From: Acidobacteriota bacterium
GTDB taxonomy: Bacteria > Acidobacteriota > UBA890 > WLXD01
Assembly: GCA_963666055.2 (NCBI GenBank)
Contig: CAXWPH010000015.1
Coordinates: 608,001-672,000, forward strand
Length of the DNA stretch: 64,000 nt
Direction: 5' to 3'
Under the pieces are notes generated by a model. It made no database searches and had not been told where the DNA came from. It was given only the letters and a program-made list of their open reading frames with translations. Every line of letters starts with the position of its first letter. Positions within the stretch are counted from its first letter, which is position 1. This document shows, in pieces, positions 1,112 through 61,352 of this stretch. The position numbers and the translations under genes were made by a program.

Positions 1112-1164
1112 TTGCTCCTCTCTGAGTTTCCAGCTCTCGGCCCGGGCGCGACGTAACCCTCCGC

Positions 1165-1194
1165 GCCCACCACACTTCCACCTCGGCCTGCTAG
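1165..1194. mobile_element. Solo end of family-A MITE at the Rieske stop codon
   Basis: GCCCACCACACTTCCACCTCGGCCTG-CTAG matches the right end of the 8940-9210 element; nearby CGTAACCCTCC (1152-1162) matches its linker region. Confidence 0.8.
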
Positions 1195-4442: not shown

Positions 4443-6155
4443 TCAGTCCTCCGAACCGGTATAGACCTCCCCAAACACCTCCGTCCCGGGCGGGTGGAGG
4501 TTCATCTCCCTATCAGTCTTCACACAAACAAGCGCCGCGCCCTCATGTTGTCGCGCCCGCTCGAGCGCCGGGACTAGTTGATCGGCCTGCTCGACATACT
4601 CTCCGTGACACCCCATGCCCTCGGCGATCACGTCCCATCGAGTCGGGCTCATGTAGGTGCTACGATACCGATCCTCCGGCACGTCGGCCTCCAGGTGCAG
4701 CATCTCTTCCATCGACCACGATCCCTCGGCGTTGACCACCACGGTAATTTTCACCCGATCGCGAACCGCAGTCTCGAGCTCCATGATGTTGAATCCGGCG
4801 GCACCGTCGCCGGTGCTACACACGACGTCGCGCTCCGGGTTCGCCAGCTTTGCGCCGATAGCATGGGGAATGCCGGTGCCGAGGTGTCCGAACTCGTAGT
4901 TGCCCACCTGCGTTCGCGGGGTCGAGAAGTCGCGCAGGGCGCGGTTGAACATGCCGGTGTTGCCACCATCGGCGACGTTAATGGCGTCGGTCGGGAACAC
5001 TGACTGCATCGCCAGAATCACCTGTGCCGGATGCACCCGGTCCGCCGCGAAGGAGGCCTCGATGTCACCCATCATTGCCTGCGCGGCGGAATCGCTCATG
5101 GCGCGGAAACGCGCTGCTTCCGAACCGTCCGAGGCGGCAATCCCGGCTTCCTTCACCGCCGCGAGCAGTCTACGCAACGCCGCGCCGGCGTCCGCAACGA
5201 CGCCGCGATGTAGACGCCTATGCAGTCCGATATTTCGCGGGTCGATGTCCACCTGAACGAGCTTCTGGTCGGCGCCGCCCCAGTACTTGTCGAAGGGAAG
5301 ATCGACCTCGCCCAGACACGTCCCGAAGGCGATCACGAGATCCGCCTCCCGCCGGGCGGCCCAGTGGCCTTCGGACCCCGGGCGCAGATGGTTCGGGTGG
5401 TCGTCGGGGAGTGCAGTGTGGCCGTGACCGCTAGTCAGCGCCGGGCAATCGAGCAGCTCCACCAGCTCACGGAACTCGCCCCACCCCTCCGAATTGAGCA
5501 CCCCCACGCCGGCCATGAGTACCGGGCACTTGGCGTCGCGAATGAGATCCACGAGATGTGCGGTCTCGGACAACGTCGGCTCCGCCGGCACGGTGGACCG
5601 GTACTGGGCCGGGTCGAGCACCTCGACGCTGCCGTCGTCGCCAGTGGCGTTCATGATCGTGTCGGTCATGTCGATATGTACCGGGCCCGGTCGCCCGGCC
5701 AGCGCCTCGCGGAAGGCACGCGAGACGATCTCGGGAATTCGCTCCCACTGGTGCACCACGGCGTTCCACTTGGTCACCGGCCGGAACATCTCCTGCTGAT
5801 CCATCGCCTGGAAGATGCCGGGCTTGCTCGGGTAGACGACCTCGGCGCGGCGCTGCGCCGTCACCACGAGCATGGGCACGCCTTCCGCCAGAGCACAGAT
5901 CACACCGGAGAGCACGTTGGCAGTGCCGGGCCCGCCGCCGGCCAGCACCAGGCTCATCGCTCCGGAAGTCTTGAAGATCCCCTGAGCAATATGCGCTGCC
6001 GCCGCTTCGTGCCGCGGCGCGACGTGCCGAAACCCATAGTCGGCGCAATGGTGCTGGATGGTGTGGTAACCCTCGTCGGTGATGCCGATGACGAACTCGA
6101 TACCCTCGCGCTGCACACAGCGCAAGAGCAGCTCGCCGCCCGTGATCTCTGCCAT
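4443..6155 (-). CDS. Thiamine-diphosphate-dependent enzyme (acetolactate synthase / 2-hydroxyacyl-CoA lyase superfamily)
   Basis: RHE motif, GPGTAN, GDGAAGF...N ThDP-binding motif; GGGAGAG RBS. Confidence 0.9.
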   Translation of the reverse strand: MAEITGGELLLRCVQREGIEFVIGITDEGYHTIQHHCADYGFRHVAPRHEAAAAHIAQGIFKTSGAMSLVLAGGGPGTANVLSGVICALAEGVPMLVVTAQRRAEVVYPSKPGIFQAMDQQEMFRPVTKWNAVVHQWERIPEIVSRAFREALAGRPGPVHIDMTDTIMNATGDDGSVEVLDPAQYRSTVPAEPTLSETAHLVDLIRDAKCPVLMAGVGVLNSEGWGEFRELVELLDCPALTSGHGHTALPDDHPNHLRPGSEGHWAARREADLVIAFGTCLGEVDLPFDKYWGGADQKLVQVDIDPRNIGLHRRLHRGVVADAGAALRRLLAAVKEAGIAASDGSEAARFRAMSDSAAQAMMGDIEASFAADRVHPAQVILAMQSVFPTDAINVADGGNTGMFNRALRDFSTPRTQVGNYEFGHLGTGIPHAIGAKLANPERDVVCSTGDGAAGFNIMELETAVRDRVKITVVVNAEGSWSMEEMLHLEADVPEDRYRSTYMSPTRWDVIAEGMGCHGEYVEQADQLVPALERARQHEGAALVCVKTDREMNLHPPGTEVFGEVYTGSED

Positions 6156-6172
6156 GGTCTCTCCCTGACTAG

Positions 6173-6443
6173 TGTCCTGTAACACAGGTTCGTTGCGTAT
6201 TGCTGGGTCGAGATGGGGGCAAGCTCAAGGCGCGATGAGAATGACGATGCCACGCCCATCGTCGACGAATCGCAACGCTGAGATTGCCCCCATATCGACC
6301 CAGCCCTCCGGGTGGCCACGGGACTGGCCACCTCCGGCGTCGGCCCTCCTCTACGATACGCTCAGCATCGCCGTCGTCGAGCCTCCTTGGATTCGACTCA
6401 GTCGCGTGCGCCACAATATGCAACGAACCTGTGTTACAGGGCA
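6173..6443. mobile_element. 271-bp MITE, family B
   Basis: 30-bp TIRs TGTCCTGTAACACAGGTTCGTTGCGTATTG / CAATATGCAACGAACCTGTGTTACAGGGCA (28/30); CTAG at 6169-6172 and CTGT on the right; two 101-nt hairpins joined by CCCTCCGGG. Confidence 0.85.
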
Positions 6444-6542
6444 CTGTATGGTGCGCGGCATTCTCCCTGCCCGAGGGCGTGCCGCACAACCCTTGCAGCG
6501 ACTGAGTGCGACAGTCCAAGCCCGAGAGGTTCAACAATCGTG

Positions 6543-7970
6543 ATGCCCGAGCCCGCGCCACTCACCACGTCTTCTCGCGTGTACTACGCGTCCGGGGGCA
6601 TGGCGACCGGCATCATCAACAACGGCTTCAGCAGCTTTGTGCTGCTCTATTACAGCAACGTTCTGGGCGTCCCCGCCGCTATGGTCGGCAGCGCGCTGGC
6701 CATCGCGCTGGCGTTCGACGCCGTTTCGGATCCCGTCGTCGGCTACTTCTCCGACAACCTGCGCTCGCGCTGGGGCCGCAGACACCCGCTCATCTACTTC
6801 TCGATCCTTCCCGTCACCGTGCTGTTCTACCTGCTCTGGCATCCCCCGCTAGAATCGCCGAGCTCGGACACACTGTTCTGGTATCTGCTGTCTGTCACCA
6901 TCCCCTTGCGGCTCCTGATGACGTTCTACGAGGTGCCCAGCAACGCCCTCGTGCCCGAGCTCACGCCCGACTACGACACGCGTACGCGGCTGCTCAACTC
7001 CCGATGGTCGGTGTATTTCTTCAGCGCCAACGCGATCGCCGTGGCGATGTACGCGTACTGGCTGCGGAATACCGACGAGCACCCCACCGGCTTGCTGAAC
7101 GTCGCCGGCTACCAGGACATGGGCCTGGTGGGGGCGGCGATCATCTTCGCCGCCATGCTCGTGTCGTCGGTCGGCCTGCACCGCTTTATTCCCTTTCTGA
7201 GGTCGCCGCCGCCCAGACGGCGGCGTTCCCCGCGCGCCATCTACCGCGAGATGTACGAGACCTTTGCCGATTGGTCGCTCCTCGCTCTGCTGGCTGCAGG
7301 CACCTTCTACGCCGCCGCTAACGGCACGATCAACGCGCTCTGGGCCTACCTCTACAGCTACTTCTGGGGGCTGTCATCGGTGCAGATGTCGTTCCTGCTG
7401 CTGGCGTACGTAGCTGCCTCACCAGTCGCCTTCGCACTCGTACAGCGACTCTCGCGCAACCGTGACAAGCGCACGGTCGCGCTTGGCGTTGCCGCCGCCA
7501 GCGTGGTGGTTACCTCGGGACCGGTGATGCTGCGTGTGCTCGGCGTGTTTCCTGGCAACGACAGTTCCTGGCTGTACCCGATTCTGGTCGTGCATGGACT
7601 CGTGGAGATGGCGCTCTACGTGATGTTCACCACCATGCTCGCCTCGATGATGGCTGATCTGGTGGAGAAACGGCAGCTGGTCACCGAGGCCCGGCAGGAG
7701 GGGTTGCTTTTCTCCGCACAAACCTTCGTGATCAAGATCACCTCCGGAATCGGGGCGTGGGTCGCGGGGATCGTGCTCTCGGTCGTCGACTTCCCGTCCA
7801 ACGCTCAGGCGGGCGATATTCCCGCCGATACGATCTTCGGGCTCGGGCTGCTGTATGCACCGACGATGATGGTGCTGTTTGGCATCTCCACGTACGCCCT
7901 GACGCGCTTCAAGGACACGCGGGCAGACCACGACGAGCACCTGCAAAGGTTGGAAAACGCGGCGACCTAG
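6543..7970 (+). CDS. MFS transporter, GPH/MelB-like
   Basis: FDAVSDPVVGYFSDNLRSRWGRRHP motif, ELTPDYDTRT, about 12 hydrophobic segments. Confidence 0.9.
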   Translation: MPEPAPLTTSSRVYYASGGMATGIINNGFSSFVLLYYSNVLGVPAAMVGSALAIALAFDAVSDPVVGYFSDNLRSRWGRRHPLIYFSILPVTVLFYLLWHPPLESPSSDTLFWYLLSVTIPLRLLMTFYEVPSNALVPELTPDYDTRTRLLNSRWSVYFFSANAIAVAMYAYWLRNTDEHPTGLLNVAGYQDMGLVGAAIIFAAMLVSSVGLHRFIPFLRSPPPRRRRSPRAIYREMYETFADWSLLALLAAGTFYAAANGTINALWAYLYSYFWGLSSVQMSFLLLAYVAASPVAFALVQRLSRNRDKRTVALGVAAASVVVTSGPVMLRVLGVFPGNDSSWLYPILVVHGLVEMALYVMFTTMLASMMADLVEKRQLVTEARQEGLLFSAQTFVIKITSGIGAWVAGIVLSVVDFPSNAQAGDIPADTIFGLGLLYAPTMMVLFGISTYALTRFKDTRADHDEHLQRLENAAT

Positions 7971-8885
7971 TCAGGCGAACGCGGCCTTCAACGCACGGGT
8001 GTGCGGCACGCCCAACCCACAGCAACCGCCGATAATCTGCGCGCCGCTCGCTACCCAGCCGCGTGTCTCGTGCACCAGATCGTCGGGCTCGATGATGTCG
8101 ACGAACTGCCAGTTGGGCATCACGAAGTAACCAGACTCCGGGTAGACTCCGAGCGGGCCCGACCAATGGCTCTTTACCACCGCGAGCCCCGTCGGAGTGT
8201 CGTCGATCGAGCTGTGCATGACGTTGATCACCCCGACTCCGCATTCCGCGAGCTCGCTCACGAGCTGCTCGAAATCGGCGTGGGGAGGATCGAAGCCGAC
8301 GACGCCACCCGTCTCGACGTCCCGCCGGCAGCTCAAGCCGAGCCATACCGGCAAACCGGTGGCCACCGCTGCCTCGGCGATAAGCCGCGAGGAGACCGGA
8401 TGCGAGCACATCTCCAAAGCGATGAGCTCGACGCCCGCCGCCGCCAACAGATCGGCCTGCACGCGAAACCCCTCCGAGAGACGCTCGGCGTCGGGCAGTT
8501 CCTCGTTCATACCCACCCATGGACACATCGAGCCGGCGATCGCCACGGGGCTCTGCGCCGTTTCGTCGCGAGCCTGCCGGGCCACTTCTACCGCAGCCTT
8601 GTTGATGCCCGCCATCTCGTCCCCAAGCCCCGCCTGCTCGAGCAGATAAGGGCCGGCCGCAAACGTGTTGGTGATGATCACCTCGGCGCCGGCCGAGATG
8701 TAGTCGGCGTGGGCGGCACGCACCACCTCGGGATCGGACAGCACTGCCGCACCGCTCCACGCTTTCTCGTTCATGGCCACGCCGCGAGCCTCGAGCTCGG
8801 TGCCCATCGCACCGTCGATTACCACCAGGTCGCCGGCGGCGATCTTGTCATGGAGCCAATCGGGCCCATAGCGAACATCTGTCAT
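7971..8885 (-). CDS. Homocysteine S-methyltransferase family protein
   Basis: DGAMGTELE, HADYISAGAEVIITNTF, IGGCCG. Confidence 0.92.
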   Translation of the reverse strand: MTDVRYGPDWLHDKIAAGDLVVIDGAMGTELEARGVAMNEKAWSGAAVLSDPEVVRAAHADYISAGAEVIITNTFAAGPYLLEQAGLGDEMAGINKAAVEVARQARDETAQSPVAIAGSMCPWVGMNEELPDAERLSEGFRVQADLLAAAGVELIALEMCSHPVSSRLIAEAAVATGLPVWLGLSCRRDVETGGVVGFDPPHADFEQLVSELAECGVGVINVMHSSIDDTPTGLAVVKSHWSGPLGVYPESGYFVMPNWQFVDIIEPDDLVHETRGWVASGAQIIGGCCGLGVPHTRALKAAFA

Positions 8886-8918
8886 GACCGCTCTCCTCAG
8901 AAGCAGTTTTTCATCTAG

Positions 8919-8935
8919 TGTCCTGAGTCAGGACA
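8919..8935. mobile_element. Collapsed 17-bp family-B-like scar flanked by CTAG
   Basis: CTAG-TGTCCTGA-G-TCAGGACA-CTAG palindrome; TGTCCTG equals the family-B terminus. Confidence 0.7.
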
Positions 8936-8939
8936 CTAG

Positions 8940-9210
8940 CAGGCCGTGGTGGAAGTGTGGCGGGCCTGGCGACAGGGTCTTGCGAGGTGGAGGCAAGGAG
9001 AGAGGAGGAGGCGATGGCTGCCCCATCGTTGACGACGAGCGACGCAGCATACGCGCGCAACCCCCTATCGCCCGGAGGGTTACGGCGATTTGGGGTCATC
9101 TGCGGCGTTGGCCCTCCTGGACGATGGCTGGAGCATCGCCGGCGTCAGGCCGCCTTCCATCTGACCCCAACTCGCCGTAATCAGGCCCGCCACACTTCCA
9201 CCACGGCCTG
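8940..9210. mobile_element. 271-bp MITE, family A
   Basis: Perfect 29-bp TIRs CAGGCCGTGGTGGAAGTGTGGCGGGCCTG; CTAG on both sides (8936-8939, 9211-9214); second copy at 36631-36895. Confidence 0.92.
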
Positions 9211-9214
9211 CTAG

Positions 9215-9234
9215 CCGGGTGCTGAAGAACTCTG
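9215..9234. mobile_element. 20-bp family-C mini element
   Basis: CCGGGTGCTGAAGAACTCTG between CTAG and CTAA; 19/20 identical to the reverse complement of 42871-42890. Confidence 0.75.
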
Positions 9235-9295
9235 CTAATACCATGAGGCGACTGACAATGCTGGTGCTACGAGCACCTGCAGCAGCCGAAGGAGC

Positions 9296-10654
9296 GTGCC
9301 AGAAATGACGATCGCAGCGCTGACTCCCCGAACCGGCGGGTGGATATGGTCCCGTCCCTTGCTCGCCGCCACCCTCGTCCTGCTGGCCGGCTGGGATCCG
9401 GCCGCGGCAGCAGCGAGCCCGCAAACGGCGACCACCGCCGTGATTGCCGGCTCTCTGATCGACGGCACCGGGGCAGAGCCACAGGGCCGAACGGTCATCC
9501 TCATTGAAGGCGGGCGAATACAGGCGGTCGGCCCAGCGTTGGATGTTCCGGCCTCGGCCCGGATCATCGATCTGTCCGAAATGACGGTATTGCCGGGGTT
9601 CATCGACCTGCACAGTCATCTCACCTATCCGGCAATGACCGATGCGGGCTTCGAGCTTGCCTTCGTGCAGCAGAGCGCCGCCGACTTCGCCTTGCTGGGC
9701 GCTCGCAACGCCAAGCTGGCGCTGATGACTGGCTATACCAGCGCCCGCGAGCTTGGAGCCTTCGGTTTCGCCGATGTCGCTCTGCGCGACGCCATCGATG
9801 CAGGCTGGGTGCCTGGACCGCGACTGCAGGTGGCCGCCTACGCGCTCAGCATCACCGGCGGCCACTGCGACAACAACGGCTTCTTGCCCGGCCTGTTCGG
9901 TGCCGAGCCGGGTATCGAGCAGGGCATCGCCAACGGCCCCCGGGAAGTTCGGGCGGCTGTTCGCTACCAGGTCAAGTACGGGGCCGACCCGATCAAGATA
10001 TGCGCCACCGGCGGTGTAATGTCGTTCGGCGACTCGGTCGGGGCGCAACAGTTCAACGCCGCCGAGCTGGAAGCAGCGGTACAGAGTGCCCACCAGCTGG
10101 AGCGCCGGGTGGCCGCACACGCTCATGGATTGGAAGGGATCAAGGCTGCCGTTCGTGCGGGGGTCGACTCGATCGAGCATGGCACGTTCATCGATGACGA
10201 AGCGGCACGCATGATGGCCGAGAGCGGAACGGTTCTGGTGACCACGCTCCTGGCAGGCGACGCGATACAGCAGCTGGCCCGAGCTGGTCGGCTGCCGCAG
10301 GAGCTCGCCGCCAAGGCTCGCTTGGTCGAGGGGGTCAAGGAGGGGGCGATCCGCCGAGCCGCCGCAGCGGGGGTAAAGATCGGTCTAGGTACCGACAACG
10401 TCTTCGGGCTTCCAAGCGAGAACGGGCGCGAGTTTCGTTTCATGACCGAGGCTGGGCTGGAGCCCATGCAGGCAATCATGGGCGGAACCAGCATCGCCGC
10501 CGAGCTCATGGGCTGGGAGGACGACGTCGGTACTATCTTGCCAGGACGCTACGCCGACCTGGTGGCCGTGCGCGGCGATCCGCTGCAGAACATCGAGTTA
10601 CTGGAGAACGTGCACTTCGTGATGCAGGGCGGCAACGTAATCAAGCAGGAGTGA
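9296..10654 (+). CDS. Secreted metal-dependent amidohydrolase (Xaa-Pro dipeptidase-like)
   Basis: PGFIDLHSH, IKICATGG, AAHAHG, SIEHG, GTD, GRYADLV. Confidence 0.9.
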   Translation: MPEMTIAALTPRTGGWIWSRPLLAATLVLLAGWDPAAAAASPQTATTAVIAGSLIDGTGAEPQGRTVILIEGGRIQAVGPALDVPASARIIDLSEMTVLPGFIDLHSHLTYPAMTDAGFELAFVQQSAADFALLGARNAKLALMTGYTSARELGAFGFADVALRDAIDAGWVPGPRLQVAAYALSITGGHCDNNGFLPGLFGAEPGIEQGIANGPREVRAAVRYQVKYGADPIKICATGGVMSFGDSVGAQQFNAAELEAAVQSAHQLERRVAAHAHGLEGIKAAVRAGVDSIEHGTFIDDEAARMMAESGTVLVTTLLAGDAIQQLARAGRLPQELAAKARLVEGVKEGAIRRAAAAGVKIGLGTDNVFGLPSENGREFRFMTEAGLEPMQAIMGGTSIAAELMGWEDDVGTILPGRYADLVAVRGDPLQNIELLENVHFVMQGGNVIKQE

Positions 10655-18711: not shown

Positions 18712-18770
18712 TCGGTACCTCTCTGGCTGACCGGGACGCTCTCGAGCTGCGGGAGACGCTACCACCCTAG

Positions 18771-18799
18771 CAGGCCGTGGTGGGAGTGTGGCGGGCCTG
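18771..18799. mobile_element. Collapsed 29-bp family-A scar
   Basis: CTAG-CAGGCCGTGGTGGGAGTGTGGCGGGCCTG-CTAG: a single TIR length between two CTAGs. Confidence 0.85.
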
Positions 18800-18803
18800 C
18801 TAG

Positions 18804-22593: not shown

Positions 22594-22628
22594 CGCCGCT
22601 TCCTGGTGGGAGTCAGTGTCCTGTTTAA

Positions 22629-23797
22629 GGAAGGTCTGATCAATTGGCCGTCAGTCAGGATGGAGCCTGATTGGAGGAACTGGTCGGCATGAGGGTGGGA
22701 ATGCAGTCGCCCTCCGAGCTGCTGCCGACGGGTTCAACCGCGACGGCGGCCTCTCAGGGTGCCTGTTTCAGGTGTGCGCGAGCAGCACCTTGCGTGCCAT
22801 GAATAGGTTGGCCAACGCGCAGGTCACGAAGAGCCGGTGCGCGTTCTTGTGGAGCCCTCGGTATCGGACCTTTCTGAAGCCGAAGATGCGCTTGATCACC
22901 AGCATCGGGTGCTCGACTTTGGCCCGCACCTTCGACTTGGTGCGGTTTCGAGCTCGGTCTCGCTCGGTCAGTGGCCGGTGACGGTGCCCTTTCTTGTTGG
23001 TGAAGTCCTTGGCACCGGGAGCACACCGGACAATGACCTCCCGTCGGCCCGTATAAGCGCTGTCTCCCCACACCCGCGTCTCCTGCCCATGCAGCAGATC
23101 CTCTAGCACCTGGCTGTCATGGACATTGGCGGCGGTGGCCACGACCGAGTGAATGAGCTTGGATTTGCTGTCCACACCGAAGTGTCCCTTCATCCCGAAG
23201 TACCATTGGTTGCCCTTCTTGGTCGAGCGCATCTCCGGATCCCGCTGCTTGGCCTTGTTCTTGGTCGATGACGGGGCGGTGATGATCGTCGCGTCGACGA
23301 TGGTGCCCGTGCTGACCTTCAGCCCCCGCCCCTGCAGGTGCTCGGCAACGATGTGGAACACCTGCACGCCCAGCTCGTGGGTCTCCAGAAGGTGCCGGAA
23401 CTTGCACACCGTCGTCTCGTCCGGCGCCGGCTCCCGTCCCAGATCGATCCCCACGAAGGCACGCATCGCCCGCGAGTCGTACAGCGCCTCCTCCACCCCC
23501 GGGTCCGACAGGTTGAACCACTGCTGCATGAAGTAGATGCGCAGCATCCTCTCCAGCCCGACTGGGCGCCGTCCCGCTCCCTTCGGCTTCGGATACACCG
23601 GCTCGATCAAAGCGCACAGCTGGGCCCACGGCACCACCTGATCCATCTCTGCCAGGAACCGCTCCCGGCGGGTCACCTTCCGGTACTGCTCAAAGGACCC
23701 TTCGGCAAGCGTCTGCTGGCGCATTCCCTTCTCCCTCTGGCGGCGTGATCGGATCCGCGTGCATTATCCCATCGAACCCGAATTGATCAGAGGTTCC
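22629..23797 (-). mobile_element. Complete IS5-family insertion sequence (1169 bp)
   Basis: TIRs GGAAGGTCTGATCAATT / AATTGATCAGAGGTTCC (15/17); TTAA target duplication at 22625-22628 and 23798-23801. Confidence 0.95.
22768..23724 (-). CDS. IS5-family DDE transposase
   Basis: TRRERFLAEM, QQWFNLSD, VDATII, KKGNQWYFGMKGH, GDSAY, RAKVEHP. Confidence 0.96.
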   Translation of the reverse strand: MRQQTLAEGSFEQYRKVTRRERFLAEMDQVVPWAQLCALIEPVYPKPKGAGRRPVGLERMLRIYFMQQWFNLSDPGVEEALYDSRAMRAFVGIDLGREPAPDETTVCKFRHLLETHELGVQVFHIVAEHLQGRGLKVSTGTIVDATIITAPSSTKNKAKQRDPEMRSTKKGNQWYFGMKGHFGVDSKSKLIHSVVATAANVHDSQVLEDLLHGQETRVWGDSAYTGRREVIVRCAPGAKDFTNKKGHRHRPLTERDRARNRTKSKVRAKVEHPMLVIKRIFGFRKVRYRGLHKNAHRLFVTCALANLFMARKVLLAHT

Positions 23798-23813
23798 TTA
23801 ACTCAGTAGCGGC

Positions 23814-36630: not shown

Positions 36631-36895
36631 CAGGCCGTAGTGTGGCGGGCCTGGATACGGCGAGCTGGGGCCGGATACAAGGCGGCCTGACACAGGCGAT
36701 GCCCTAGCCATCGTCGAAGAAGGCCAACGCCGCAGATGGCCCCAAATCGCCGTAACCCTTCGGGCGACAGGGGGTTGCGCGCCTATGCTGCGTCGTTCCT
36801 CGTCAACGATGGGGGTTCCATCGCCTTCTCCTCTCTCCTTGCCTCCCCCTCGCAAGACCCTGTCGCCAGACCCACCATACTTTCACCACGGCCTG
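36631..36895. mobile_element. Family-A MITE, inverted copy (265 bp; 6-bp deletion in one TIR)
   Basis: Aligns end-to-end with the reverse complement of 8940-9210; CTAG at 36627-36630 and 36896-36899. Confidence 0.92.
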
Positions 36896-42733: not shown

Positions 42734-42870
42734 AGCAGAGTACGGCCGGCAATCCCTGCCCGTCAAGACCCCGCCAGCGGCGACTCGCCCGACGGTCTTG
42801 TGTATGGTCAACCCCGACGCTCCCCCGAGCCATATCGTGCTGCCGGTGATGCCGCGCTAGGGCCTTCTAG

Positions 42871-42890
42871 CAGAGTTCTTCAGCACCCTG
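42871..42890. mobile_element. 20-bp family-C mini element with CTAG duplication
   Basis: CTAG-CAGAGTTCTTCAGCACCCTG-CTAG inside the palindromic site GCCTT-CTAG-AAGGC. Confidence 0.8.
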
Positions 42891-44621
42891 CTAGAAGGCG
42901 CTGTCGGCCAGCGTGATGACGCGGCCAGGAAGCGCCCCGGTCAGGCGGCCTTCCTCGACGACAGCCTCGCCCCCGACCAGCACCCACTCGACGCCCTCGG
43001 CAAACTGGTGCGGCTCGCTGAACGTCGCCCGGTCGCGAATCCTCTCGAGATCGAAGACCACGAGGTCCGCCACCAGGCCCTCACGTACCAGGCCCCGGTC
43101 GTTGAGCCGTAGCACCTGCGCCGGTAGCGATGTCGACGTGCGCACCGCCTGTGCGACGCTGAGCGCCCCCAGCTCGATCGCGTAGCGCCGAATCTTGCGT
43201 GGAAAAGTCCCGTAGTAGCGAGCGTGAACCGGAAGCTCATCCTCGACTACCGCGACGCCGGCGTCGGAAGCGGTCAGCGTGTAAGGCTCGGCCGCCAGAG
43301 CCTCGACGTCGACCTCGGCGAGCGAGAATCCGCGCAGGCGAGCGCCACCCGGGCGCGTCGTGAACCCCTCGAGCTGAAGAAGGATCGCCGCCTCGATGGG
43401 TTCGACCCCACGATCGCGGGCGAGCTGAGCGAGCGACTTGCCGACTTGTGTCGGGTCCGAGTACTCGAAGATGAAGATCTGCTCGGCCCCACCGCGGCGA
43501 TCGATCTCACGGCGGACGTCGCGCCCCAGGTCGGCACGGAGGGCGTCGTCGTCGAGGACATGGCGCAAAGTGGCGGCGTAATCGGGGTCGGCGGCTTCCT
43601 CGTCGCCACTCTCGCCCCAACGATCGTAGCCCAGCGCCCATGGCGGGATCAGCACTGTGTTGCCGTCGCTTCCCGTAGTCGTGTACGGGTACTGGTCTAA
43701 CCAGATCTCGACGCCGCGGGCGCGCGCCGTCCGCATCAAGTTGATGATGGCGCCGCTAGAGCCCCAGTAGTCGGCACCTTTCACCTTGATGTGGGTGGCC
43801 ACCGTGGGGACACGCGTGGACTCGGCGATAAGAATCGTCTCGACGATGTTGTCGAGCATTGTCGGCGGCCCGGGCTCATGCCGGCTCGGCAGATACCACA
43901 TGGGGTCGGCGCCCGAGGCACGCTCGTGCACGATGTACACGCCACCGGTATCGGTGAGCGTCGATACCAAACTGAGCACCTCGGAGGTATCGCTCCATCG
44001 CCCCGGTACGTATTCGAGCCCCGCGGACAGGCCGTAGGCGCCCTCGGCGATGCCCTGGCGCACCATGGCGGCCATGCGCCGCACCTCATCGTCGGTCGCC
44101 AGACGTCGAAAGTCGGGCCCGAGCACCTCGCGGCGAATGCTGTTGTGGCCCACCAGCAGAATGGTGTTGGGGCCGGTACCGAGGTCTTCCAGGGTGGCCC
44201 GTTGCCGGGCGATCGACAGCGGGCTGCCGCCGTCCTGATTGACCACCACCGTGGTGATGCCCTGGCTGACCAGGTTCGGTGCGCTGCGCTTGTGTGGATC
44301 CGGTGCACGCAGCCCGCTGCGTTCTCCGTCGGGACCATCGGCGTGCGAGTGCATGTCGATGAAGCCGGGGGCGACGATCTTACCAGCGACGTCGATCACG
44401 CGGTCGGCGGGCGCCCCACTCAGCCGCCCGACGGCAGCGATGCGCCCGTCCTTGATGCCAACGTCGGCGTAGCGCCATGGATTGCCCGTGCCGTCGAGTA
44501 CCCGGCCGCCGACGAGCAACAGGTCGTAGCCGTCGGCCGCGAGGGTCGAGCCACCGGTGGCGACGGCGAGCAACATCGTCAGTGCCAGCGCCCCGCCGTG
44601 GCCAACAATTCGCTCGTTCAT
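42891..44621 (-). CDS. Secreted N-acyl-D-amino-acid deacylase family amidohydrolase
   Basis: DGTGNPW, PGFIDMHSH, GLEYVPG, DQYPY, RYYGTFPR, ADLVVFD. Confidence 0.9.
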   Translation of the reverse strand: MNERIVGHGGALALTMLLAVATGGSTLAADGYDLLLVGGRVLDGTGNPWRYADVGIKDGRIAAVGRLSGAPADRVIDVAGKIVAPGFIDMHSHADGPDGERSGLRAPDPHKRSAPNLVSQGITTVVVNQDGGSPLSIARQRATLEDLGTGPNTILLVGHNSIRREVLGPDFRRLATDDEVRRMAAMVRQGIAEGAYGLSAGLEYVPGRWSDTSEVLSLVSTLTDTGGVYIVHERASGADPMWYLPSRHEPGPPTMLDNIVETILIAESTRVPTVATHIKVKGADYWGSSGAIINLMRTARARGVEIWLDQYPYTTTGSDGNTVLIPPWALGYDRWGESGDEEAADPDYAATLRHVLDDDALRADLGRDVRREIDRRGGAEQIFIFEYSDPTQVGKSLAQLARDRGVEPIEAAILLQLEGFTTRPGGARLRGFSLAEVDVEALAAEPYTLTASDAGVAVVEDELPVHARYYGTFPRKIRRYAIELGALSVAQAVRTSTSLPAQVLRLNDRGLVREGLVADLVVFDLERIRDRATFSEPHQFAEGVEWVLVGGEAVVEEGRLTGALPGRVITLADSAF

Positions 44622-60950: not shown

Positions 60951-61322
60951 TCAACGTGCCCGCAGCGCCAGGACGAGAGCCTCTCGGCCGGACGGCACGG
61001 CGACGCGCGTCGGAGGCCCGGCCAGCTTAGCCGGCACCGACAGTTGCTGCAGGGCCGCGCCGGTTTCGACATCGAGAAACTCCCCCGTCATCGACCGGGG
61101 CAACTTCAGTAAGAGCTCTGAAGCCAGCGTGGTTTCTTCCATATACACGATGACCTGGTCTCGGCCGAACAGGCCGAATGTCGGTCCGGGTGACCTGGCT
61201 CCACGGAAGTACTCGGAGCCGGGCGGCATTCGGATGAAGATGACATCCTCCCACGCCAGGTTGCCCAACAGTGCGCTGAGCCTTCCCGGTGTCGCCTGGA
61301 GGATCCGATACAGGTGGTCTAG
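60951..61322 (-). pseudogene. C-terminal fragment of an unknown gene cut at a family-A end
   Basis: Coding-like frame begins exactly at CTAG 61319-61322. Confidence 0.45.
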
Positions 61323-61352
61323 CAGGCCGTGGTGAAAGTGTGGTGGTTCTGG
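61323..61352. mobile_element. Family-A element end
   Basis: CTAG-CAGGCCGTGGTGAAAGTGTGGTGGTTCTG; another CTAG at 61373-61376. Confidence 0.8.

Follow-up and report, generated by a model that had tools for sequence, protein, structure and literature searches.

A G·A-centred hairpin unit between the ends of unrelated transposons in MITEs of an Acidobacteriota genome

The closest described systems are bacterial MITEs that are mobilised in trans by IS630 (such as RUP and ERIC) or by transposases of the IS5/IS1182 types, and they share with the elements analysed here terminal inverted repeats (TIRs) matching an autonomous IS, a TA-centred target, a non-coding sequence in many copies, end-to-end folding and frequent landing on stop codons. 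In contrast to those MITEs, the interior reported here is no remnant of the partner IS and is common to the ends of unrelated transposase families. ERIC is listed as MITEEc1_IS630 (PMC11602168) and the MITE cores of Neisseria, E. coli and Anabaena are said to have no mutual similarity (PMC3184786). ERIC, or IRU, of the Enterobacteriaceae (127 bp) is likewise a long imperfect hairpin, along which the basal motif of our unit can tentatively be aligned in register, but it is a single hairpin with an apex ~20 nt longer and short TIRs, lacking the twin arrangement and the linker of the 271-bp elements. As far as the available description goes, the CIR repeats of Caulobacter and Brucella span ~110 bp, with two arms and a linker, no TIRs and a tie to GANTC (PMC2229807); by that description they resemble our elements in the two hairpin arms, the linker and a conserved predicted structure, and are set apart from them by the 271-bp length and 30-bp TIRs found here. 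As for REP/REPIN-RAYT, the ends of our elements match DDE transposons instead. In the plant MITE Stowaway, internal sequence reportedly affects the transposition of the non-autonomous element. In mPing, internal sequences tune transposition (PMC9921582), and the interior of these plant MITEs would be comparable to ours in its influence on transposition frequency; the plant enhancers are family-specific and double-stranded, whereas ours is a folded, strand-specific module found across transposase families and phyla. No published description of the core was found in a literature search, and MITE catalogues (e.g., the supplements of PMC11602168) may contain its sequences. We regard the elements as a new MITE variant carrying an unexplained, ancient structured cargo.

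The window, meaning the whole 64,000-nucleotide stretch of DNA that was analysed, contains one family B and two family A elements (Table 1). The initial annotation had described two 271-bp elements plus a family A copy lacking 6 bp of TIR, and their coordinates and lengths were reproduced, together with the landmarks occupying identical positions in A and B (linker at 132, CGATG at 73, CATCG at 85 and ACGC at 103). Both are laid out as a 30-bp end, a hairpin unit of ~101 nt, a 9-nt linker, a second unit of ~101 nt head to head with the first, and another 30-bp end, and the flanks read CTAG as proposed, except to the right of B. The symmetry of the twin holds for its geometry and not for its sequence: its two units are related but distinct and lie inverted to each other, the nearest relative of a unit being its own partner in 0/44 cases. 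The shared interior turned out to be homologous rather than identical, with 44/101 and 26/101 ungapped identities, B1 being nearer to A2 (61/101) than to A1. Folded whole, elements A and B were far more stable than shuffled sequences (z -9.9 and -11.5); of the units folded alone as DNA, A1 and B2 were weak (z -1.0 to -2.0) and A2 and B1 strong. A scan of 6100-9400 revealed no promoter or terminator inside the elements. The TAGs flanking the second family A copy are the stop codons of convergent genes for a YCII-domain protein and a sigma-70 factor.

Table 1. Features of the MITEs and adjoining transposon ends in the window
Feature	Position	Strand	Remarks
CTAG target left of element B	6169..6172		right-hand counterpart decayed to CTGT, 6444-6447
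Family B MITE, 271 bp	6173..6443	+	flanked by divergent TPP-enzyme gene and MFS transporter gene
B left TIR, IS630-type	6173..6202	+	23/29 to IS630 right end (relative G007), 14/18 to own-genome IS630
Hairpin unit B1	6203..6303	+	G·A ladder on + strand
B linker, 9 nt	6304..6312		3-bp mini-hairpin predicted
Hairpin unit B2	6313..6413	-	G·A ladder on - strand; stem weaker
B right TIR	6414..6443	-
17-bp palindrome, two fused IS630 ends	8915..8939		between two CTAG sites, adjoins element A; 6 near-identical genome copies
Family A MITE, 271 bp (273 if TA alone duplicated)	8940..9210	+	flanked by divergent homocysteine S-methyltransferase gene and amidohydrolase gene
A left TIR	8940..8969	+	outer 17 bp match ends of IS1182-like DUF772 element, relative G011 (16/17 for this copy)
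Hairpin unit A1	8970..9070	+
A linker, 9 nt	9071..9079
Hairpin unit A2	9080..9180	-
A right TIR	9181..9210	-	followed by CTAG at 9211-9214
Family E (IS5-type) end remnant	9215..9237	+	adjoins element A
Second family A copy, 265 bp	36631..36895	-	reversed; 6 bp absent from one TIR

That this architecture is not due to chance was borne out by the whole genome, where 101 of 172 unit clusters are +/- twins with at least four end types and 99 of the 102 two-unit clusters keep a gap of 8-10 nt. Family A numbers 81 copies of 265-275 bp, and complete family B copies amount to only two. The length of 271 bp, taken at first as fixed, is a mode and not a constant: 58 of 129 paired A ends lie exactly 271 bp apart and 82 of them 269-272 bp apart, family C measures 270 bp, and 57 of 62 twins from other loci span 264-277 bp. 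Typical hallmarks of MITEs are present, with inverted ends (TIRs of 29-30 bp), target duplication and empty sites, a short length, multiple copies and no transposase gene. Insertion occurs at CTAG, where the duplication leans towards TA rather than CTAG (10 changes at the outer versus 2 at the inner position, 162 ends). Movement has been very recent: none of the seven comparable orthologous sites is filled in both G000 and G002, and comparison of filled and empty sites gave, in line with the expectation of empty CTAG sites, two clean and one approximate case, each with a single CTAG. No empty orthologous site for the elements at 6173 and 8940 was found among five relatives, nor any further clean empty site in the DNA contigs of four sequencing runs. 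Elements abutting at a shared CTAG were not enriched (15 observed against ~15.6 expected, under lenient end-calling).

The ends of families A and B are alike at only 7/18 positions, and a search for autonomous ISs carrying each TIR found them in relatives. The outer 17 bp of A correspond to the ends of a transposon encoding a 472-aa DUF772 protein, sampled at four loci in relative G011, at 17/17 positions for the majority variant and 16/17 for the copy at 8940; we call this element IS1182-like, its best NCBIfam model being IS1182 with 158.6 bits, under the cut-off of 270. The inner 13 bp of the A left TIR are MITE-specific and common to family E, whose ends match two IS5 elements at 17/18 positions. 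The B ends match IS630 elements at 16/18 and 23/29. In their own genome (95.7% complete) neither an IS1182-like nor an IS5 element carrying the A or E ends turned up, the only candidate partner being an IS630 with 14/18 to B; the IS5 in the window (22625-23801, TTAA target) reaches just 3-8/18 with the MITE ends. Since no hairpin unit lies inside the IS630 and DUF772 elements examined (30 and 24 loci), the interior does not come from the partner IS and the deletion-derivative model fails, which upholds the original view of a structure-constrained non-coding interior between unrelated ends. The accompanying proposal of a separate mobile RNA/ssDNA system gained no support: nothing indicates an enzyme of its own, and ordinary DDE transposition is the likely route of movement, because selection sifts the outer 17 bp as it would genuine binding sites of a transposase. 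Recruitment of different ends fared better in part, for the ends are indeed unrelated; a single swap, rather than repeated recruitment across superfamilies, may have been enough, since the five twins with IS630 ends all fall, with weak support (39/91), on one side of the tree. This tree (22 rows; L020, L130 and L120 excluded) is mostly unresolved.

A close-up view of the unit shows strong covariation in the outer stems, which enclose a ladder of tandem G·A pairs that hardly varies, in agreement with the initial statement that the outer stems vary yet pair. Changes on both sides were counted in 32 of 35 pairs (94 hits; matched by 0/500 shuffles), although these pair counts lean towards the model because alignment A4 was fitted to it and the structure was drawn up manually after folding alignment A2, one row of which is chimeric. 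The covariation score is 0.59, against a maximum of 0.10 with slid partners, and the top mutual-information pairs among 64 non-redundant units are nested pairs, joined by one non-Watson-Crick pair that alternates between C·A (38) and A·G (22). Of 16 units compared, 15, 15, 15, 12, 14 and 16 retain the six G·A/A·G oppositions. The unit likely folds on one strand only. G·T outnumbers A·C (40 versus 20, p=0.013), the sense strand gives the better RNA fold in 14/16 units, and each twin carries one sense copy of the unit per strand. The linker loop reads GNA on one strand in 13/19 end groups, with a closing pair changed from C-G to T-A in some families; a GNA loop with a T-A closing pair would presumably suit a DNA mini-hairpin, and the commonest loop on the other strand is what we take to be an RNA UNCG tetraloop, so that the linker leaves the choice of DNA or RNA undecided. 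A check against Rfam 15 gave no match in the window at the gathering threshold, and only four chance matches in nine loci (E 0.65-1.9).

Such a structure could be there for its shape alone, the tandem G·A interrupting a long palindrome and letting it escape hairpin nucleases, RNase III or deletion with no specific partner. Tandem G·A pairs are stable in DNA and RNA alike, and any paired sequence is tolerated in the stems; for that purpose, however, any mismatch would do, whereas 29 columns reach 85% identity or more in a set of 64 units drawn from several phyla, where they keep a fixed spacing and include Watson-Crick pairs that do not swap, and the hairpins still undergo deletions, all of which makes this explanation improbable. 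A pair of stem-loops whose internal loops are large, carried by a mobile element, also recalls a bridge-RNA-like guide that specifies target and donor for a recombinase. In the bridge RNA of IS110/IS1111, variable unpaired loops match target and donor. Here the internal loops are invariant and the variable positions paired, the reverse of a programmable guide; moreover, the ends belong to DDE transposases and the single IS110 gene of the genome has no A or B end listed nearby, and we give such a guide hardly any credence.

What the core does may be read from how it mutates. In a strict test on 79 A copies, rare changes per site were about as frequent in the core as elsewhere (0.54 versus 0.68, p=0.30), but alleles present in at least four copies were scarcer in it (0.07 versus 0.24, p=0.01), the outer TIR giving a similar 0.06; this test was designed after a looser one without a significant outcome (p=0.40; 72 core sites, all 81 copies, alleles shared by three or more of them), compares 4 with 43 alleles and drops two divergent copies. 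The core of family A thus mutates freely after insertion and rarely in the variants that spread, which points to selection at copying, although a similar signal might arise from hot spots of mutation or from gene conversion. We consider it about an even bet that the elements are MITEs with three end types around two inverted copies of an ancient G·A-centred hairpin unit of ~105 nt, which raises the chance that a copy transposes.

The orientation of the elements bears on another reading, in which the unit folds in read-through transcripts and controls their termination or decay, so that copies with a good core would be cheaper to the host and persist, as has been suggested for ERIC in Yersinia. 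Between co-directional genes, as called by a simple codon-score script, A1 is the first unit encountered by the transcript in 38 of 47 cases (38:9, p=2.5e-5); all nine opposite cases lie at least 102 nt from the next gene, and 18 of the 38 favoured ones less than 100 nt. In addition, a long ORF has its stop codon directly at the element in 49 of 92 full copies, compared with 1133 of the remaining 4939 CTAG sites. The better RNA fold of the sense strand also agrees with this reading, and so does the C·A/A·G exchange, these being isosteric sheared pairs in RNA. There is a precedent as well in the reported effect of ERIC on mRNA stability (PMC2229807, PMC3184786). Against it stand the rare mutations of inserted copies, which are not depleted in the core, and the complete turnover of sites between close genomes; besides, the antisense of A1 is rich in C (C minus G = +17 per 40 nt) and might load Rho, which would produce the bias independently of the core. 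Altogether we regard regulation at the RNA level as unlikely. The 38:9 bias shows that the interior is of consequence for the host or for the choice of target too, something that a transposition-promoting cargo does not explain on its own.

On a wider scale, 37 of the 121 Acidobacteriota genomes and 10 of the 41 from Myxococcota contain the unit, the G-A-rich centre being conserved over several bacterial phyla. Single-unit rods and tail-to-tail twins are present in other phyla, and what is conserved is thus the unit of ~105 nt and not, as had been supposed, the whole twin of 271 bp. Within the elements studied, the twin appears to be inherited as a block. In 15 of 23 short A copies the deletion begins 2-6 nt into unit 2, at its linker side, and ends within the TIR, as would be expected if a hairpin forms in single-stranded DNA; the polarity of deletions relative to GC skew was not significant (16:8, p=0.15). 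Copies reduced to one unit look like separate losses without spread, because they carry different haplotypes despite intact outer TIRs.

Some of these observations would suit a second-tier mobile element, a single-stranded hairpin recognised by a putative enzyme and dropped between end-to-end transposon remnants. Units have many unrelated termini, and at loci L113, L140 and L264 they neighbour tmRNA or tRNA genes and lack transposon-like ends, while at L260 the unit lies in frame within a repeated gene; empty end-to-end remnants exist (8915-8939), and the deletions have one fixed end in common. Nevertheless, the units of G000 are located within TIR-bounded elements or fragments of them, the twin seems to pass on as a block, the loci read showed no gene that accompanies the unit, and viral contigs, phages and plasmids gave no match to the exact pattern or to the family A query, leaving this scenario with a slim chance.

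The resemblance to ERIC was followed by running the model, with filters off, on 13 ERIC loci, where the four best of six matches were ERIC copies (best E=0.016), and a two-block profile ranked 7 of 13 ERICs above the rest of their own 3-kb locus, the copies not being independent in either case; with strict filters, the whole E. coli K-12 chromosome gave no model match. A link between the unit and E. coli ERIC is suggestive only. A broader proposal includes it: the ladder unit would be an ancient, transposase-independent cis element whose single-strand fold is recognised by a conserved host factor, enabling gene-less elements with ends of the IS630, IS5 or IS1182 type to amplify across many phyla, forming also the base of E. 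coli ERIC, and present in the Acidobacteriota twin as one active copy per strand around a four-way junction. We hold this tentatively, as somewhat short of an even chance.

Returning to MITEs whose cargo favours transposition, families A and E would be moved by IS1182-like and IS5 transposases and families B and C by IS630, the cassette being passed on as a block as its ends were swapped. End replacement would probably proceed through other elements landing in the flanking CTAG sites; the A copy at 8940 sits between an IS630 end and an IS5 end. Selection would act on the centre when copies are made, not on resident chromosomal copies. Least certain of all, a putative conserved host protein may bind the folded single strand and aid the pairing of the ends or the repair of the donor site, that strand being either DNA exposed by replication or transcription, or a transcript.

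The unit is an abundant structured motif missing from Rfam. MITE interiors are usually deemed leftovers, and here the interior outlasts the ends and, in the within-family test, acts like the tips bound by transposase. Should the core promote copying, this would account for the excess of gene-less elements over their helpers (81 full A copies, against no matching helper found in their own genome), and it could bear on the old question of what keeps ERIC conserved. The idea is directly testable, since partner transposases and targets have both been identified and covariation shows which bases to change.

As the initial annotation had described, the B element and the neighbouring A element share one length and one layout (inverted ends of 30 bp, a 9-nt linker that begins at position 132, and a 101-nt unit on either side of it), and a second A copy lies further along. 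Both whole elements fold well beyond shuffled controls (z of -9.9 and -11.5), and the linker is able to form a 3-bp hairpin that would complete a predicted four-way junction; folded alone, A1 and B2 are weak. The idea of a shared symmetric cassette held for the geometry, but the units of a twin are inverted relatives instead of copies, and the A and B interiors differ, with 44/101 and 26/101 positions in common between their units in an ungapped comparison, where B1 is nearest to A2 (61/101).

Coordinates of the elements and of related features, with copy numbers in the genome of the window (G000)
Feature	Position	Length	Copies in G000	Remarks
Family A	window 8940-9210	271 bp	81 full	
Second A copy	window 36631-36895			reversed; one TIR short by 6 bp
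Family B	window 6173-6443	271 bp	2 full	
Family C		270 bp	8	
Family E		271-272 bp	4	
Two further terminal types			fragments	
Fused IS630-end palindrome	window 8915-8939			
E-end remnant	window 9215-9237			
Lone A and E end remnants	window 1155-1194, 18767-18803, 42867-42894, 61319-61352			every one at CTAG
IS5-family element	window 22625-23801		8 near-identical	complete; 318-aa transposase; TTAA target
Addition in a contig of run X8	window 7970	21 bases		at the CTAG ending an MFS gene
A copies within unit 2 of another copy	G000 C1:107444, C11:160030-160410, others			in the CTAG of the apical loop
A-ended element	G000 C15:1397704	162 bp		interior unrelated to unit (43% to reference)
Chimera L006	G000 C15:2034350-2034830			E-type left end; second unit half B1, half E1; B-type right end
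Units adjoining tmRNA-like or tRNA-like genes	L113:1501-1605, L140:1476-1580, L264, L272			judged by eye
Unit with short inverted ends (G141)	L260:2100-14330			inside a gene segment present as four repeats

The covariation test of the unit came out strong: both sides change in 22 of 35 pairs among 17 hand-picked units and in 32 of 35 among 94 model matches, counts that favour a structure itself derived from the same sequences. The model matches scored 0.59 for covariation; slid partners reached no more than 0.10, and the count for shuffles was 0 of 500. Moreover, mutual information over 64 non-redundant units, with the pairing not supplied, recovered the nested pairs and revealed one non-standard pair that switches between C·A (38) and A·G (22). 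A ladder made up of single pairs plus tandem G·A oppositions forms the centre and is retained in 12-16 of 16 units; above it we find a 7-bp stem with a free loop of 7-8 nt. An excess of G·T over A·C (40 vs 20), together with better folding of the sense strand (14/16 units as RNA, 11/16 as DNA), indicates that the predicted fold is likely strand-specific; a twin has one sense copy of the unit per strand.

Across the 5.73 Mb of G000, the unit profile gave 294 matches at E<0.001. Of the 172 clusters that they form, 101 are head-to-head twins; the gap measures 8-10 nt in 99 of 102 two-unit clusters. CTAG occurs there 5391 times vs ~18,800 expected, and a stop codon adjoins 49 of the 92 full copies. 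Insertions of A into the unit 2 loop number 12 vs a rough expectation of ~3.7 (four of them form one tandem array with 83-bp halves), most of them lacking the remainder of the host copy. The L006 chimera likely arose by recombination inside the shared core.

Within the same order, 19 of 25 genomes matched the A element; outside it, 0 of 5 did. The model search detected the unit in 37/121 genomes of the host phylum Acidobacteriota and in 10/41 from the phylum to which a record titled Myxococcota belongs. It also occurs in records whose titles name Gemmatimonadota, Bradymonadales and delta proteobacterium; by title, 16 of ~22 distinct motif-carrying records are Acidobacteriota. Twins bounded by TIRs occupy 62 of 110 loci, with ~17 end types, and 57 of these 62, many drawn from few genomes, measure 264-277 bp. 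Length is not fixed at 271 bp and is a consequence of the component parts. Outside Acidobacteriota the unit is mainly single in ~165-bp rods, in tail-to-tail twins without linker, or with a longer apex: the conserved entity is the unit and not the twin. None of 44 units had its own twin partner as closest relative, so the twin is a pairing of long standing that has been passed on as one block. A second twin design was seen in G137 (L262, L263), ~270 bp long with IS630-like ends and tail-to-tail units without the 9-nt linker. At L264 the gene has one unit on either side, and at L260, where the repeated segment is presumably Rhs-like, an open frame runs out of the unit.

Autonomous partners were found for each type of end, IS1182-like for A, IS5 for E and IS630 for B. 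The outer 17 bp of A recur without mismatch at the end of a 1.5-kb element of the relative G011, an element that encodes a 472-aa DUF772 transposase whose nearest model, IS1182, scores under cut-off. For E, the ends agree at 17/18 with two IS5 elements of G007; those of B agree at 16/18 and 23/29 with an IS630 right end from G007, vs 14/18 for the IS630 of G000 itself; A and B ends have 7/18 in common. No unit was found inside the partner elements examined, the matches in their loci being adjacent MITEs, which means that deletion within these helpers did not produce the interior, in line with the initial annotation. Its suggestion that ends of different transposons had been recruited stood in that unrelated ends surround a related interior, but a single swap between superfamilies suffices, since the five IS630-ended twins fall on one side of a tree of 22 twins, with weak support (39/91). 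A and E are separated by a further swap, which involved just the outer 17-18 bp. The A copy at 8940-9210 is flanked by the fused palindrome and the E-end remnant, which could illustrate a route of end swapping. The X8 addition, from a related strain (~93% alike), resembles the same kind of palindrome. In G007, with 146 DUF772 matches, one IS630 type is found next to A-type MITE ends at no fewer than 7 of the 9 loci shown (L041-L062), and a second type in 0 of 6. The IS5-family element of the window is unrelated to the MITE ends.

In 800 kb of G002, none of seven comparable orthologous sites was filled in both genomes, and the empty CTAG sites sought in relatives appeared as two clean cases there, each with one CTAG. 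The 36631 site holds other end remnants in G002 and none in G003 and G004. Over 162 ends the outer C of CTAG changed in 10 and the inner G in 2, leaning towards duplication of TA alone, which would make the true length 273; movement is probably ordinary.

Among 79 A copies, rare changes reach 0.54 per site at 57 strict core sites vs 0.68 elsewhere (p=0.30), and alleles common to at least four copies 0.07 vs 0.24 (p=0.01; outer TIR, 0.06). An earlier version, in which the core was defined more loosely, gave no significant result (p=0.40), so the evidence for selection on the core is moderate. One-unit derivatives retain both outer TIRs, and four with an identical junction still differ in haplotype, suggesting that units were lost repeatedly and that these forms did not spread. 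Unit 2 was lost in 15 of 23 short A copies, where the break falls 2-6 nt into the unit from the linker side and the sequence resumes within the TIR; B, C and E offer comparable cases. Such a pattern, for which no correspondence with GC skew was seen, would be compatible with slippage where single-stranded DNA folds into a hairpin. Favouring copying is the likeliest role of the folded module, at about even chances.

The main rival, a role in the host at the RNA level, seems unlikely to us, and the orientation of A copies bears on it both ways. With elements masked and genes from our own caller, A1 is the first unit that the transcript meets in 38 of 47 co-directional gene pairs (p=2.5e-5), whichever replication strand is considered. 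This bias, arising despite similar ends, supports an RNA-level effect; yet the C-rich antisense of A1 could account for it without the core. Between convergent genes, 20 of 24 copies have A1 pointing towards whichever gene lies on the G-rich strand (p=0.0015), divergent pairs split 3 to 7, and the remaining families have too few copies. No copy in the rarer orientation comes closer than 100 nt to the next gene, a sign that this orientation may be polar.

As for known relatives, an Rfam search found no described family for the interior, nor was any account of the unit core found in the papers searched. The basal motif of the unit and E. coli ERIC align in register; against 13 ERIC loci the unit model reached a best E=0.016, with ERIC copies as the top 4 of 6 matches, profile comparison was positive for 7/13, and a genome-wide model search of E. 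coli gave none. These suggestive results make kinship of the two likely, if unproven. CIR elements, as described in PMC2229807, resemble the twin in having two arms and a linker, but are set apart by their 110 bp and lack of TIRs. Altogether, a real and new MITE variant is well supported, whose unusual trait is an ancient folded module persisting longer than its ends.
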